Below, in pieces: positions 36,435 through 41,959 of a DNA stretch of 43,663 nucleotides. Under the pieces are notes generated by a model, which saw only the letters and a list, made by a program, of their open reading frames with translations, searched no databases and had not been told where the DNA came from. Position numbers and translations under genes: made by a program. This DNA is from an uncultured Candidatus Poseidoniales archaeon (GTDB lineage Archaea; Thermoplasmatota; Poseidoniia; Poseidoniales; Thalassarchaeaceae): assembly GCA_964645485.1 (NCBI GenBank), contig CAZXZO010000016.1, forward strand, positions 1-43,663, written 5' to 3'. Position 1 is the first letter of the stretch. Every line of letters starts with the position of its first letter.

Positions 36435-37151
36435 TTATTCGAGAACTTGAGGCACAAGGACTCTTGCCGGGTGACAATTTATCCAACGTAGTGTTAATTC
36501 ACGAAGTTGGTTCGATTTGAATGAATGCTGACGATGAAGACCATGGCCTGTTGCCTTGTTGAAAATTCCATCATCAAGGCCTGCACTTATTGCCATTCTA
36601 GTGATTGCAATTTTTGCCGCTCGGACAACATTTGCAGCGTATCGCCGACTTGCTTCATCTTCAAATTTAATTCCTAAGTTGCGTGCTAAATCCCCTTGAG
36701 TAACACCATCTTCTTCTTGAGCAATCATTCCTATTATGATAAATTGGTCTCGCACATGTCGGTCCCACCTGCGGAAATCTCCGGAATGTTCATCAGAGCC
36801 TGCTGCAAACTTTTCTGAAAGAGTTTCAAGCCAGGATTTGTTGGTTCCTTTGAATCGATTAATGTTGAAACTGTTGCATACTGTAATATCAAATTTAGAG
36901 TTTGATTGAAATTCAAGAAGTCCTTCAAATCGTTCACTCTTCCATTCATCAAGAAGCCAGTATTCTAACCTTCGACTTGCTTTTGGATCATGGCCTGTGG
37001 CTCTATTCACACCTTGACGAAGTAAATCAGGTGCGACCTGTCGAAATGAGTCGGGGTCCTCCTTTGCCCATGTAGAGAATGCTTCTGTGAGCCTTTGGAT
37101 TCTCTTTTTTTCGAGTGAATCCTGTTTTGATATTTGCTCGCTATTAGTCAT
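36435..37151 (-). CDS. Hypothetical protein, possible C-terminal winged helix-turn-helix
   Basis: 238-aa ORF, SD GGTGA; GVTQGDLARNLG...AANVVRAAKIAITRMA resembles an HTH. Confidence 0.65.
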   Translation of the reverse strand: MTNSEQISKQDSLEKKRIQRLTEAFSTWAKEDPDSFRQVAPDLLRQGVNRATGHDPKASRRLEYWLLDEWKSERFEGLLEFQSNSKFDITVCNSFNINRFKGTNKSWLETLSEKFAAGSDEHSGDFRRWDRHVRDQFIIIGMIAQEEDGVTQGDLARNLGIKFEDEASRRYAANVVRAAKIAITRMAISAGLDDGIFNKATGHGLHRQHSFKSNQLRELTLRWINCHPARVLVPQVLE

Positions 37152-37248: not shown

Positions 37249-37491
37249 TTAAGCCATTTCTTTGCGCCATTTCCATAAAATCTCTATTTCTGACTCAATA
37301 TCAAAAGATTCGCCGACAGTTCCTGCCCGCTCAAGTCTAGATTTGATAACTTCGATAAATTCATCATCGACTGGTTCACCGACTATCCGTTCTGCAAATT
37401 GGGCAATGCTGATGCCCGCTCCTGTAGCAATTGCATGCTCGACTCGTCGCTTCTCTTCATCATCCTCTGGAGGTCTCACAAAACGACTCAT
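37249..37491 (-). CDS. Small acidic hypothetical protein (80 aa), third gene of the E1-JAB operon
   Basis: ATG 37491 overlaps the JAB stop (ATGA) with SD GGAGGTGA; MSRFVRPPEDDEE...LWKWRKEMA. Confidence 0.78.
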   Translation of the reverse strand: MSRFVRPPEDDEEKRRVEHAIATGAGISIAQFAERIVGEPVDDEFIEVIKSRLERAGTVGESFDIESEIEILWKWRKEMA

Positions 37492-38021
37492 GCGTTCACC
37501 TCCGATTCCCATGGTGAAAGTCCCATCTCAACATGTTGGGTTGGTTCGTTACTCCAATGAATTAAAGGTCCGCTTTCTGCAAGGGGTTCGGTAGCAGGTT
37601 GTTCATCCCATACTGATACTTTCATTTGATTACGACCAAGAACGATGGCCTTGCGGATAATTCTAGCCGCACTTGCGACCGCTAATGTTTGTCGATCCGT
37701 AAAACTCCAATACGAATCTCCACTTGGATGAGTATGAGTCCATATTTGAAATGGAATAATCGCGCCTTTTGGTGGGTTCAACCCGACTCGTGAAATTGTC
37801 CCCCAATCAATGTAGCAATTCCCTACAGCATCAATCAACATGCTGACTTCCATACCAACTGTTTCACTGATGGAATAGAACCGTGGCCACATATTATTGA
37901 TACCCAAATACGCCATCGTTTCTCTTACCTCATCGCACCACACATCGCCCCTGTCAAGGGCTGCTTTCAGGTCGTCTAGTGAATGCAATACAGGTGTTAC
38001 GGGTGGCTTTGCTTCCATCAT
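37488..38021 (-). CDS. JAB/JAMM (MPN+) metalloprotease
   Basis: Exact JAMM motif: E (MEVSMLID) ... H-T-H-P-S-G-D-S-Y-W-S-F-T-D (HxH-x7-S-x2-D). Confidence 0.85.
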   Translation of the reverse strand: MMEAKPPVTPVLHSLDDLKAALDRGDVWCDEVRETMAYLGINNMWPRFYSISETVGMEVSMLIDAVGNCYIDWGTISRVGLNPPKGAIIPFQIWTHTHPSGDSYWSFTDRQTLAVASAARIIRKAIVLGRNQMKVSVWDEQPATEPLAESGPLIHWSNEPTQHVEMGLSPWESEVNA

Positions 38022-38692
38022 TCGTCACCTCCAGCAATCAGTTCAGGAACTTCTGGGAATTCCAACTCCCCAAATGTTAGGGAATACATGCGAGCGGGTG
38101 TCGGCCGGAAAGGCATGCCACTAAGTTCGCGAAGATTCTGAACCAGCCATTGAGCACCATGGGCAGCAGCAAGTGCATAGCCCATCTGTACATTTCCTGC
38201 CTTGATTGAACCTGGTATCTGACAAGAAGCAGGGGCTTGGTCAAGGGGCGTCATCATCTCAACTAGGTTCGAATCACTCTGGTAATCAAGAGCAATCATG
38301 CCATCTCCACCACATCTCAAATCTAACCAACGCTCCGATTTGTTGTGAACAAGTGCTCTTGCTGCTGGTCTGTCAACAGCAACCACAACCACGTCATAAC
38401 CATCAAGTTGTGACACCTTCTGTAATTTCTCACCAATCGGTTTCAGCGTCAGTGCAGAGGATAGGAATGGCGCTAATCTCTCTGCAGAAGAATTAACTTT
38501 GAGACGGCCAATCATTCTAGGCTCGTGTCTCTGGTGTGCAAGATTGCCAACCTCGACTCTGTCATCATCCATTAGGTGGATTTGAATCCCACCCATTCTT
38601 CTCGCTATGTCTCCCGCAGTCAGTGCGGGAATAAGCAAATCAAGCAGTTGGCTCCCGATGCCACCTGCGCCTACAACTAATACTCTAATCAT
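38018..38692 (-). CDS. ThiF/MoeB/E1-family adenylyltransferase lacking CxxC zinc motifs
   Basis: VLVVGAGGIGS, MDDDRVEVGNLAHQ, GRLKV, VVAVDRPAAR; candidate catalytic Cys in PASCQ; ATG 38692 preceded by GAGGAG. Confidence 0.9.
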   Translation of the reverse strand: MIRVLVVGAGGIGSQLLDLLIPALTAGDIARRMGGIQIHLMDDDRVEVGNLAHQRHEPRMIGRLKVNSSAERLAPFLSSALTLKPIGEKLQKVSQLDGYDVVVVAVDRPAARALVHNKSERWLDLRCGGDGMIALDYQSDSNLVEMMTPLDQAPASCQIPGSIKAGNVQMGYALAAAHGAQWLVQNLRELSGMPFRPTPARMYSLTFGELEFPEVPELIAGGDE

Positions 38693-38779: not shown

Positions 38780-39955
38780 ATGTATGAAAGCGAAATTGAT
38801 TCTCGGGGATATATGCCTGATTCGGCACTTCAGACGTTTGAAGAAATCGGCCGAATCCCAGCCAGAGTCCTTGGTTACTTGTTATCCGACAATGATGGTG
38901 AATTAGTTGATAACGACACTCCATTCAATGAAAGACTACGATTGATTAAACGGGAAGAGAAGTTAATTTGCATCCGCGCCGCAATATATGGAGTTCTGTG
39001 TGGAATAGGTATTGTATGGATAACATATCTAGCTAGATCTTTGGAGCCAAGTAACCTAACTACAGACTTAAAAGCCACCACCATATACTTCGCAATTATC
39101 ATCGGTTCAGGAATTATCCTGACGACAATTGAATTATTTTTCATCTATGTTGATACGATTCAATCCGCTAGAAAAATCGCACTTATTTCCGGCCTTCGCC
39201 CAGCAATAGTAGATGATGATGATGTTACTGATGAACTGATTGTTTCCTTAATGTATGCTGGCCTGAAAGCACCAAACTCACATTCCCCTCTTTACGGAAT
39301 TAACCCTCGGGAACATATCAATAAATTATTCCTAATTTTTAGCATGGTAGCACATAAATCAAAGGTTGCAATATCTAGAATTATTCTAAAATCACTTTAC
39401 CGACGCCTTCTCGTGAGATTGGGTGGGAGAACTGCATCCCGTACCGTAATTGAAACAGCATCTATTCCAGTATTCGCTTTATGGAATTTTATTGCAGTCA
39501 GAAGAGTGATGAAAGAAATTAGAATTCGTACAACATTTCCACTTTTAGTGGATGATTTAGAAAATAATTTGCTTCCAAACGGTTTCAATAATTTGTCAGA
39601 AATACAACAAAAAGCCACCCTTCTAGCAATCAAATCTCAAGTAACAGGGGTGGCTGATTTTCACCCTAACATCAAGTTATTTGTTGAAAGAATGTTGGCT
39701 GGTAGTTATCATGGAAATGAAGACGTTTTTGAAAACATAAAGGGTGATTTCGAAGAAATCATTGCAACCATGAGTCAAGAAGAGCGTCGAATTCCTCTTC
39801 GAATTTTTGGTGCTGTCTGTGGCATGGATGGAAGATTGAAGAGACGTGTGCGGGCAGAATCAAGACGCTTATCCACTATTTGCCCTGAGCATGATGAACA
39901 CTCACTAAAGAAATGGAGAGACCACTTCATGCATGGAACACCAATCCCTGCATGA
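38780..39955 (+). CDS. Hypothetical membrane protein (recalls the Leptospira LBF_2804-like family; unverified)
   Basis: 391-aa ORF with RAAIYG TM region and TTIELFFIYVDTIQSA; family recalled from memory. Confidence 0.6.
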   Translation: MYESEIDSRGYMPDSALQTFEEIGRIPARVLGYLLSDNDGELVDNDTPFNERLRLIKREEKLICIRAAIYGVLCGIGIVWITYLARSLEPSNLTTDLKATTIYFAIIIGSGIILTTIELFFIYVDTIQSARKIALISGLRPAIVDDDDVTDELIVSLMYAGLKAPNSHSPLYGINPREHINKLFLIFSMVAHKSKVAISRIILKSLYRRLLVRLGGRTASRTVIETASIPVFALWNFIAVRRVMKEIRIRTTFPLLVDDLENNLLPNGFNNLSEIQQKATLLAIKSQVTGVADFHPNIKLFVERMLAGSYHGNEDVFENIKGDFEEIIATMSQEERRIPLRIFGAVCGMDGRLKRRVRAESRRLSTICPEHDEHSLKKWRDHFMHGTPIPA

Positions 39956-40048: not shown

Positions 40049-40525
40049 ATGCCGATGACGTCACTTTTTTCTACAGTAAACAGCTTCCTTGAAGAAGATG
40101 GTTGGAATTTTGAGTCATTCAAAAATGACGGTGTGTTACGCGCCATATTCTCTAGTGATAAACAGGAGTGGGAGTTACTTACCCTAGTGCGCGAGGAGTT
40201 AGAACAGATCATTTTCTATTCTCATGTAACGGAATCCTCAACCCCAAAACATCGCCGTAACGAAATGTGCCTCCTACTGAATAATCTAAACAATCGTACC
40301 GTTTATGGCGCTTTTGAAATGGATATTGATGAGGGCGAAGTGATGTTTAGAACCGCTCTTGACCTTGTTGAAGTCTCGCCTTCGTATGAATTAATTCGTA
40401 ATTCACTATACACAAATCTTGGAACTATGGAACGCTATCATGGTGCTTTAGTTGCCTTGATGATGGACGATAATGTGACTGCCGACGTCGCCGCAGCGAT
40501 TGCTGCTGGCGACGAATCTGAATGA
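40049..40525 (+). CDS. YbjN-domain protein (T3SS-chaperone-like fold)
   Basis: VNSFLEEDGWNF...REELEQIIFYS...LLNNLN...YGAFEMDIDEGEVMFRTAL. Confidence 0.8.
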   Translation: MPMTSLFSTVNSFLEEDGWNFESFKNDGVLRAIFSSDKQEWELLTLVREELEQIIFYSHVTESSTPKHRRNEMCLLLNNLNNRTVYGAFEMDIDEGEVMFRTALDLVEVSPSYELIRNSLYTNLGTMERYHGALVALMMDDNVTADVAAAIAAGDESE

Positions 40526-41196
40526 TTCTTTTAAGGGTCAAAATGATGTGTGATGGTCATTCTCACCAATCCATGGCCGCGCCAAAGGTTCACTCAAGTG
40601 GCCCTGGCGCAAATCTTTCTGCTGCATATTTTGATGCTCGTTATCAAATTCTAAGACAACCTTTGGGGTTTCCACCAAGTGCCGCAAATCTTCCCGATGA
40701 TGATGTGGCTATTCACGCTTGGATTGAAATTAATGAAACAGAACAGGGTGTGGGAGTAGTTGCAGTGGGTAGAATCCATTTAATTCCAGCAGATTCAACT
40801 GGTGCGTGTGCTGACACAGATGATGAAAACGCAGCCCATTGCCCAGATTTCCCACCGCTTGGAGAGCATGGATTTAGTGATGTATGTGGCAACGAATTCC
40901 CAAGCCCCCAATCACTGCGTCCAGCAGTGCAAATTAGACAGATGGGGACGTTGGAAAATCATCAGCGAAAAGGGTACGCTGGAATGGTCTTAGCCAACCT
41001 TGAAAGTGAAGCAGTTTCTCATTGGGGAAAATGTACAGGATTCCTTCAAGCAAGAGCACATGCAATTCCATTTTATGAATCGCAAAACTGGACATGTTTT
41101 GGTGATGAATACATGGTTGAGGGAATAGGGTTGCACCGTTCAATGTGGAAACCTCTGAATGAACCACGAAACCCCGATACTCTAGTGGGAATATAG
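40522..41196 (+). CDS. GNAT family N-acetyltransferase with internal insertion
   Basis: RYQILRQPLG, VAVGRI, motif A IRQMGTLENHQRKGYAGMVL, ARAHAIPFYESQNW. Confidence 0.85.
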   Translation: MILLRVKMMCDGHSHQSMAAPKVHSSGPGANLSAAYFDARYQILRQPLGFPPSAANLPDDDVAIHAWIEINETEQGVGVVAVGRIHLIPADSTGACADTDDENAAHCPDFPPLGEHGFSDVCGNEFPSPQSLRPAVQIRQMGTLENHQRKGYAGMVLANLESEAVSHWGKCTGFLQARAHAIPFYESQNWTCFGDEYMVEGIGLHRSMWKPLNEPRNPDTLVGI

Positions 41197-41215
41197 GATA
41201 GTAGGTGAGGGTGGC

Positions 41216-41959
41216 ATGGAGCAAGAAGGCACCGGTGAATGGTTGCAAAGGATGTTGGGGGAAGAAGCCGATTTACGACTACCCAAATCTAGTGCAGAAA
41301 AAGAGGAAGAATACCTGACAAAGTGTCCACACGTCACCTTATTTGGTGAGCAAAGACCTGCCGCTCATTGTGAATTACGGCGCTGTGGGGGGGCGCTGGA
41401 ATTGTGTACTGCAATCGTTGACCCAGAGAAGCGTGGAATTGGACTTTCTCACGAGTTAGTGAGGCTCTCATTAGAACGAGCAGCACAAGACCCAATCGTG
41501 TCAGGACAAGCACTTGGTGACCATTCTCCTCCGTTGATTTTTTCTTTTACGCGCTCCGCGGCATTTGCAACGAGTTTGACAAAAGGTGGATTTAGAATAC
41601 AGCCAGCCCGTCGGAGGTTTTCTCGACTGTTTTTGTGGCGTAGTGCGTCTTCTAACCTACCATTATTCGTACAACTTGGGTTGGCGAAGGAAAGATTAGG
41701 GAGGGCGTTCAAAATGTTGTTCAAAGACCGTAAAAAGGCAAAGCAACAGGTCGGTAAGGTGGGGGAATACCATCTTTTCACAAGAATTGCTGGCACTTTA
41801 CCAGACCGGGAAGAACCTATGACAACAGATGGAATTGTTGCTTTGGGAATGAATGTGGTTCGGGTAACTGATGAAGACTTGGTTGATGAAACTGAATTAA
41901 AGCAACAAAGGTCGCAAATTTCGGAGCAAAAAGTTCACGCGTGGGATGAGGGCGAGTGA
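41216..41959 (+). CDS. GNAT-like protein (ArgA-type motif A)
   Basis: ELCTAIVDPEKRGIGLSHELV; later SLTKGGF. Confidence 0.7.
   Translation: MEQEGTGEWLQRMLGEEADLRLPKSSAEKEEEYLTKCPHVTLFGEQRPAAHCELRRCGGALELCTAIVDPEKRGIGLSHELVRLSLERAAQDPIVSGQALGDHSPPLIFSFTRSAAFATSLTKGGFRIQPARRRFSRLFLWRSASSNLPLFVQLGLAKERLGRAFKMLFKDRKKAKQQVGKVGEYHLFTRIAGTLPDREEPMTTDGIVALGMNVVRVTDEDLVDETELKQQRSQISEQKVHAWDEGE

Follow-up and report, generated by a model that had tools for sequence, protein, structure and literature searches.

The 43,663-nucleotide stretch analysed here (contig CAZXZO010000016.1 of assembly GCA_964645485.1, from an uncultured Candidatus Poseidoniales archaeon of the Thalassarchaeaceae; hereafter the window) carries on its minus strand an operon for an E1-like adenylating enzyme, a JAMM-type (JAB) zinc peptidase and a small helical protein, followed by a gene for a 238-residue protein. 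The four features are:

38018-38692, minus strand: E1-like adenylating enzyme of 224 amino acids, with a Pfam ThiF match and a ThiF/Rossmann fold
37488-38021, minus strand: JAMM/MPN+ zinc peptidase (JAB) of 177 amino acids, carrying the catalytic motif; its start overlaps the E1 stop (ATGA)
37249-37491, minus strand: acidic four-helix small protein of 80 amino acids, translationally coupled to JAB
36435-37151, minus strand: putative accessory protein of 238 amino acids with a weak winged helix-turn-helix-like (MarR_2) signal

The original prediction, made from the sequence of the window, described three genes joined by two ATGA stop/start overlaps, the last encoding 80 amino acids. The size is correct and the overlaps lie exactly where it placed them, at 38018-38021 between E1 and JAB and at 37488-37491 between JAB and the 80-residue gene. 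It had also put a Shine-Dalgarno sequence before every gene; this holds for JAB and the 80-residue gene, both preceded by GGAGGTGA, but not fully for E1, whose ATG start at 38692 has the weaker upstream signal GAGGAGAG. A conserved C-terminal Glu-Val of E1 and JAB was considered as a functional motif and rejected, being the translated GAGGTGA Shine-Dalgarno of the following gene. As predicted, the three-gene locus itself contains neither a ubiquitin-like protein (Ubl) gene nor an E2 gene. The operon context is chromosomal and common within the genus, between ribonucleotide reductase and GNAT genes and with flat GC content. The E1 was present in 34 of 41 relatives, and eight other Poseidoniales genomes kept the E1-JAB-small protein order together with its overlaps and internal Shine-Dalgarno sequences, down to about 45% identity; these eight fetched loci span both main Poseidoniales families. 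Because order, overlaps and Shine-Dalgarno sequences recur in this way, the arrangement is not due to chance, and the original prediction, which had been made to depend on a conserved gene order, stands on this point. Some lineages encode a single E1-JAB fusion protein, in the order E1-then-JAB.

The E1 scored 54.6 bits against the Pfam ThiF model (PF00899; cut-off 28.1), and its AlphaFold2 (AF2) model had a predicted local distance difference test (pLDDT) value of 91.7. In Foldseek searches the top matches of this model were all E1-like enzymes at a probability of 1.00, with PaaA, UBA5, ThiF, MccB, MoeB and Cap2 about equal at a template modelling (TM) score near 0.6. The model indicates that the enzyme has a genuine E1 fold and that none of these six is a close relative in structure. 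Across 27 E1s from Poseidoniales hosts and from viruses (described below), the P-loop, D42, D44, N50, Q54, K65, D107 and R112 are invariant, as are W122, D124, R126 and S156-C157-Q158. In the nucleotide site GxGGIG, D42, K65, D107 and R112 are all retained, and the arginine of the NLxRQ motif is replaced by His or Tyr; the residues compared were the Gly-rich loop, the ribose Asp, the phosphate Lys, the Mg Asp and the two phosphate-binding Arg, placed by their correspondence to MoeB. Cys157, in the loop after strand 131-136, has the position of the crossover-loop cysteine of ThiF-type enzymes. With 224 residues, the window E1 has no CxxC zinc site, rhodanese domain, N-terminal Arg-finger helix, peptide-clamp or RRE domain. 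The ThiF/E1 assignment, the nucleotide-site residues, the absence of CxxC and the APASCQ sequence all agree with the original reading. The C-terminal AGGDE of the window E1 was examined as a built-in Gly-Gly tag and rejected, the ending being unconserved. Several host E1s carry C-terminal extensions (P0029, P0032, P0033, P0047, P0013, L013:4776-5630 (-) and P0030); the profile of a Myb/SANT-like extension has c-Myb repeats as its top eight PDB matches (best: repeat 3, E 0.0033), and one host E1 is extended by an HRDC domain (63 bits).

All curated equivalog models failed for the E1 by wide margins. Against the UbaA model (NF047750) it reached 35.7 bits with a cut-off of 450, the alignment covering only about 115 N-terminal residues. 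The genome encodes elsewhere a canonical ThiF-family paralog of 392 amino acids (257.5 bits), a MoaD/SAMP-type protein that ends directly in GG, and another Prok-JAB. The E1 is therefore not an ordinary UbaA/MoeB, in keeping with the original prediction, and the grouping with these enzymes that would have spoken for ordinary sampylation did not appear. Because the genome has a separate UbaA-like E1, SAMP and Prok-JAB, the E1-JAMM set is an additional one. The best E-value of any family, for all 27 host and viral E1s, was obtained with PRTRC ThiF (TIGR03736), against which the window E1 scored 58.8 bits (cut-off 144.75) over residues 2-121 only. Of the PRTRC-like cysteine proposed earlier for the PASCQ motif, the cysteine itself holds up, being invariant in hosts and viruses, but membership of the PRTRC family does not.

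The window JAB has the exact JAMM motif that had been reported for it, namely E58 plus HTHPSGDSYWSFTD, which reads HxHx7Sx2D. E58, H96, H98, S106 and D109 are invariant in 14 host sequences and in 23 host-plus-virus sequences. The protein scored 12.3 bits against Pfam Prok-JAB (PF14464; gathering cut-off 25), and 12 of 23 family members match this model at E<=0.01, the best at 6.8e-5. A profile of the family found only 145 representatives among 1.84 billion proteins. We determined its distribution in 301 Thermoplasmatota genomes, comprising 63 Poseidoniales and 238 others. The JAMM occurs in 10 of 21 and 37 of 42 genomes of two Poseidoniales families, the carriers including the Marine Group II (MG-II) genome CM001443, and in 0 of the 238 other Thermoplasmatota. 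The E1 and JAMM with their coupled small helical protein are a real conserved pair, as first proposed, with gene order and invariant residues kept across relatives.

From the absence of a Ubl gene the original prediction had concluded that the enzymes act on a non-canonical modifier. This does not hold: the same genome has, on a different contig (C42; G000:C42:1637-1858, locus L136:1501-1722), a gene for a diglycine tag that adjoins E1 in sister genera and is co-distributed with the JAMM. The tag of the window genome is a protein of 73 amino acids that ends in VGG-HI, its gene lies between ftsZ and rpl15e (ribosomal protein L15e), and a search of the genome with the tag alignment returned it as the single match (78.4 bits, E 4.4e-22). 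In four other genomes (G121, G185, G093 and G134) the tag gene is directly upstream of E1 or of the E1-JAB fusion, and the small helical protein comes after. In genus g11 the tag gene occupies the slot upstream of E1 that in the window is held by an LBF_2804-family gene, and the same slot holds the tag in G134. In this genus the tag gene has probably been relocated away from its enzymes.

The tag and the JAMM are found together. Among the 301 genomes the JAMM is present in 47, the tag in 44, both in 44 and the tag alone in 0, these being counts from related and hence non-independent genomes. Both are absent in 16 of the 63 Poseidoniales, and the tag occurs in 0 of the 238 other Thermoplasmatota. 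Genera g12, g15, g5 and g7 each include single genomes that lack both tag and JAMM and have congeners with both. An alignment of host and viral tags shows invariant positions at G-H, W, F, V, P and G, and a P-x-x-V-G-G end plus 0-2 residues. The ending GG plus 0-2 residues is shared by all 37 viral homologues and by three of the four aligned host tags; the fourth ends in AAG. The tag is presumed to have a beta-grasp fold. In the Marine Group IIb (MGIIb) genomes G026 and G040 the tags are head-to-tail di- or tri-tag polyproteins with VGG at every junction (L137:300-737 (-) and L138:257-1120 (-)), and such poly-tag precursors give the JAMM an obvious task.

Distant relatives of the JAB were first seen on marine contigs full of small co-directional genes, and a scan of IMG/VR identified at least 311 magrovirus-like viral contigs that carry a JAMM relative. 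Five viral records of 94-98 kb, rated 100% complete, encode PolB, and such records fit the magroviruses of Philosof et al. 2017 (PMC5434244). E1 lies upstream of the JAMM on the same strand in 76 of the 85 viral loci examined, adjacent to it or with one gene between. The viral E1s score 78-106 bits against the host E1 profile and form one clade (SH-aLRT 94) in a tree whose sole outgroup is very distant (branch 6.6) and whose root is not fixed. The viral tag family, of 68 amino acids ending in A-I-V-G-G plus 0-2 residues, was present in 35 of the 47 viral loci whose upstream sequence exceeds 7 kb. Conserved viral neighbours encode a TFIIB-like (TFB-like) protein, a chaperonin and an ATP-dependent DNA ligase, and in 36 loci a Myb-like DNA-binding protein lies between E1 and JAB. 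ThiS, ubiquitin and Prok_Ub models gave no match in the five complete viral genomes; these known Ubl models miss the viral tag because it is too divergent. The viral JAB had no match in the GenBank phage collection, and the main texts of the magrovirus papers examined mention none of ThiF, JAB, ubiquitin, adenylyltransferase or MoeB.

Three further observations concern the viral contigs. Magrovirus-type E1 and JAB genes also occur on contigs L126, L127 and L128, which were binned into Altibacter and Maricaulis metagenome-assembled genomes; these are probably mis-binned viral contigs and not bacterial genes. A conserved 72-residue gene just upstream of the viral chaperonin gene (e.g. L024:6991-7209 (+)) looks GroES-like by eye, and Philosof et al. 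2017 (PMC5434244) expected magroviruses to be without a co-chaperonin. A 74-residue Cys/His zinc-ribbon-like family adjoins E1 in some viral loci (e.g. L028:7227-7442 (+) and L036:7554-7778 (+)), and several of its members end in GG plus one residue.

The 80-residue protein is all-helical, with four helices in an AF2 model of pLDDT 72 in which residues 1-9 are below 50. Its predicted disordered N-terminal tail holds R6, P8, D10 and E13, four of its eight invariant residues; no Cys, Ser or His is invariant. The C-terminus is variable and predicted to lie inside the last helix (residues 65-79 of 80). Homologues fall into more than 463 clusters; the source names shown are all Poseidoniales or unclassified Euryarchaeota. 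No informative fold match was found for it: VIA-align gave at most Z 5.1, and Atlas returned only the protein's own family. A predicted complex of E1, JAB and the 80-residue protein scored 0.00 and was given no weight in either direction. A ribbon-helix-helix assignment was dropped, as the AF2 model has no strand, and a NepR match (16.5 bits) was judged to be chance. No viral homologue was detected by hidden Markov model search or by hhalign against 60 viral gene clusters (best probability 4.7%). The 238-residue protein is present in 36 of 47 system-positive genomes, in 0 of 16 system-negative Poseidoniales and in 0 of 238 other Thermoplasmatota. Its gene adjoins the operon in genera g1, g3 and g11 and the tag gene in G289, and it is probably an accessory component. 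Lacking an invariant cysteine, it was rejected as an E2-type carrier. In Pfam and PADLOC, no E2 family was matched by any of the four locus proteins.

Several genes flank the operon. The LBF_2804-family gene (38780-39955 (+), NCBIfam 191 bits) lies between E1 and a YbjN-like gene, has low GC (0.384 in the 39-40 kb bin) and has no counterpart at this spot in G001, G005 and G134; it looks like a recent insertion. The region 40049-41959 (+) encodes a YbjN-family protein (48.9 bits) and then two weak GNAT-like acetyltransferases, and all three genes keep their synteny with the operon in g1 and g11. In genus g10 a radical-SAM wyosine gene that resembles Taw1/TYW1 by eye lies directly upstream of E1 on the same strand (L016:5658-6668 (-) and L017:5657-6661 (-)); this position is not conserved in other genera.

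We read the three genes as the enzyme core of a Poseidoniales-specific, dispersed ubiquitin-like tagging system whose diglycine tag is encoded elsewhere, and give this interpretation a probability of about 0.68. The JAMM is predicted to trim the tag precursor after Gly-Gly, which would remove the two terminal residues of VGG-HI in the window genome and separate the units of the MGIIb di- and tri-tags. The minimal E1 would bind ATP and adenylate the exposed glycine carboxylate of the tag, and the acyl group would probably move to the invariant Cys157 in the crossover loop. Target lysines could then receive the tag with no recognisable E2 taking part, as happens in archaeal sampylation. A further possible role of the JAMM is deconjugation, the removal of the tag from its targets. 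The 80-residue and 238-residue proteins, both confined to hosts, would have an accessory function, whether in regulation, as an adaptor or as a target.

In magrovirus-like viruses, the viral tag, E1 and JAMM have TFB-like and Myb-like genes as neighbours. This location, together with the fusion of some host E1s to a Myb-like or HRDC domain, hints that the targets of tagging are DNA-bound or transcription proteins. A more speculative proposal, which we consider rather unlikely as it stands, is that Poseidoniales and magroviruses each run E2-independent tagging aimed at the transcription-initiation or DNA-bound machinery, that the virus thereby re-programmes host transcription, and that the 80-residue and 238-residue proteins are specificity or regulatory parts. 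If true, this would be the first virus-versus-host contest via ubiquitin-like tags in archaea.

Several results weigh against the tagging interpretation. Two ATP-phosphate arginines of canonical E1s are absent from these enzymes, one with the loss of the N-terminal helix and the other through replacement of the NLxRQ arginine by His in hosts and mostly Tyr in viruses, and for this reason adenylation is an assumption. The viral E1s, at about 186 residues, are without most of the C-terminal subdomain that docks the Ubl in MoeB and ThiF. Pfam and PDB profiles fail to recognise the tag, as does the ThiS/MoaD model, and hhalign of the tag against the SAMP of the genome was not significant. The non-independence of the co-occurrence counts belongs here too. 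No E2 or E3 was identified at the locus, and a UQ_con search of the five viral genomes was silent, as it was on its control. The tagging scheme also leaves the conserved 80-residue protein without a defined task.

The same genes might instead serve sulfur transfer, with the E1 adenylating the diglycine protein to yield a thiocarboxylate for a cofactor, tRNA or small molecule, the JAMM only maturing the carrier and no protein being tagged, as in ThiS/MoaD, CysO-Mec+ and QbsE-QbsD. Ubl, E1 and JAMM operons without an E2 are the classic sulfur-carrier layout with JAB maturation (Iyer et al. 2006, PMC1779556, table rows 4a-4e), and both the Gly-Gly end with its short tail and the invariant E1 cysteine would suit a carrier. 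Loci of hosts and viruses alike lack a linked gene for a rhodanese, cysteine desulfurase, SirA or biosynthesis, however, and the genome already possesses its 392-residue canonical ThiF-family E1 and a MoaD-type carrier. Protein tagging is more likely than sulfur transfer because of the head-to-tail poly-tags, the absence of a linked sulfur-metabolism gene and the viral carriage beside transcription and replication genes, which seem to fit tagging better; we regard a pure sulfur carrier as unlikely. Another alternative, in line with the non-canonical modifier or target of the original prediction, makes the 80-residue protein itself the substrate. On that account the E1 would adenylate its N-terminal acidic tail or its C-terminus and the JAMM would cut it, by MccB/PaaA-like chemistry or with the protein as a Pup-like, non-beta-grasp modifier. 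Its gene is always translationally coupled to JAB, the disordered tail is predicted to hold the invariant R6, P8, D10 and E13, and the top structural matches of the E1 include PaaA and MccB, which tie with every other E1. This idea is nevertheless quite improbable given that the enzymes have a cognate diglycine tag whose occurrence varies with theirs, that viruses keep E1, JAMM and tag but no 80-residue homologue, that the C-terminus is variable and inside a helix and not a free tail, and that the E1 has no peptide-clamp or RRE domain.

Nothing points to an anti-phage defence role. A defence module resembling Cap2/Cap3 of CBASS (cyclic-oligonucleotide-based antiphage signalling system), Bil or Bub, against which the viral copies would act as counter-defence, would accord with the fact that bacterial E1/JAB systems are mostly defence systems (bioRxiv 10.1101/2024.11.21.623953), with the carriage of homologues by viruses of the same hosts, and with the weak scores that the Rossmann half of the E1 obtains with PADLOC E1-E2 models and with NCBIfam 6A-MBL cap2_3. 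The operon has no recognised E2 domain and no CD-NTase or effector, however; PADLOC gave no match for the JAB, the 80-residue or the 238-residue protein; the chromosomal context is stable, between ribonucleotide reductase and GNAT genes with flat GC; most of the genomes sampled from two families have the system; and the viruses carry the whole set including the tag, more than an eraser alone. Defence is the least probable of the explanations we considered.

The system is neither UbaA/SAMP nor PRTRC, and it appears to be distinct from CBASS, Bil and Bub. It resembles the SAMP/UbaA/HvJAMM1 system (SAMP1-3, Haloferax volcanii) in pairing an archaeal diglycine tag with an E1 that has no known E2 or E3 and with a JAMM whose trimming and removal roles are here predicted. 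It differs from it in the low UbaA score of the E1 (35.7 against 450 bits), in the missing CxxC and N-terminal helix, and in the presence of a separate UbaA-like E1, SAMP and Prok-JAB in the same genome; to our knowledge, the poly-tag precursors, the 80-residue partner and the viral copies have no SAMP counterpart. Bub (class 6e; Iyer, Burroughs and Aravind 2006, PMC1779556; Ye et al. 2024) similarly has a poly- or extended Ubl precursor cut by a JAB fused or adjacent to the E1, and sister lineages of both systems have peptidase/E1 fusion proteins. Bub, however, has an E2, a fusion in the order peptidase-then-E1, an E1 without a catalytic cysteine, and chemistry that proceeds through oxyesters (bioRxiv 10.1101/2024.11.21.623953), whereas here the fusion is E1-then-JAB, the cysteine is invariant, an E2 was not seen and the system belongs to archaea and their viruses. 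CBASS Cap2/Cap3 and Bil (BilABCD) share the use of an E1 adenylation domain and a JAB as writer and eraser, and the E1 fold matches Cap2 at a TM score of about 0.6. In type II CBASS and Bil, Cap2 and BilB supply the E2, Cap2 acts on the CD-NTase tail and the genes lie in mobile defence islands, none of which was seen here. PRTRC ThiF (TIGR03736), whose system is itself of unknown function, is the best-scoring curated family for the window E1, and a phage protein named PRTRC_ThiF matched at a TM score of 0.69; the score is nevertheless far under the cut-off (58.8 against 144.75 bits) and confined to the N-terminal half, and no other PRTRC family matched the five proteins scanned. In the literature on magroviruses with ThiF or ubiquitin, and on Poseidoniales with ubiquitin-like proteins, we found no description of an E1-JAMM-tag system.

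Under the tagging interpretation, Poseidoniales would possess a second ubiquitin-like system apart from SAMP/UbaA, with a polyubiquitin-style precursor, a very small E1 and viral copies of the set. This would broaden the known range of prokaryotic ubiquitin-like machinery and offer a compact E1 for mechanistic study. It also carries a lesson for annotation, in that an E1-JAB operon that seems to be an orphan may be served by a tag gene at a distant site of the genome. For the Poseidoniales and their magroviruses, the system would make virus-host interplay accessible to testing in a group that is uncultured.

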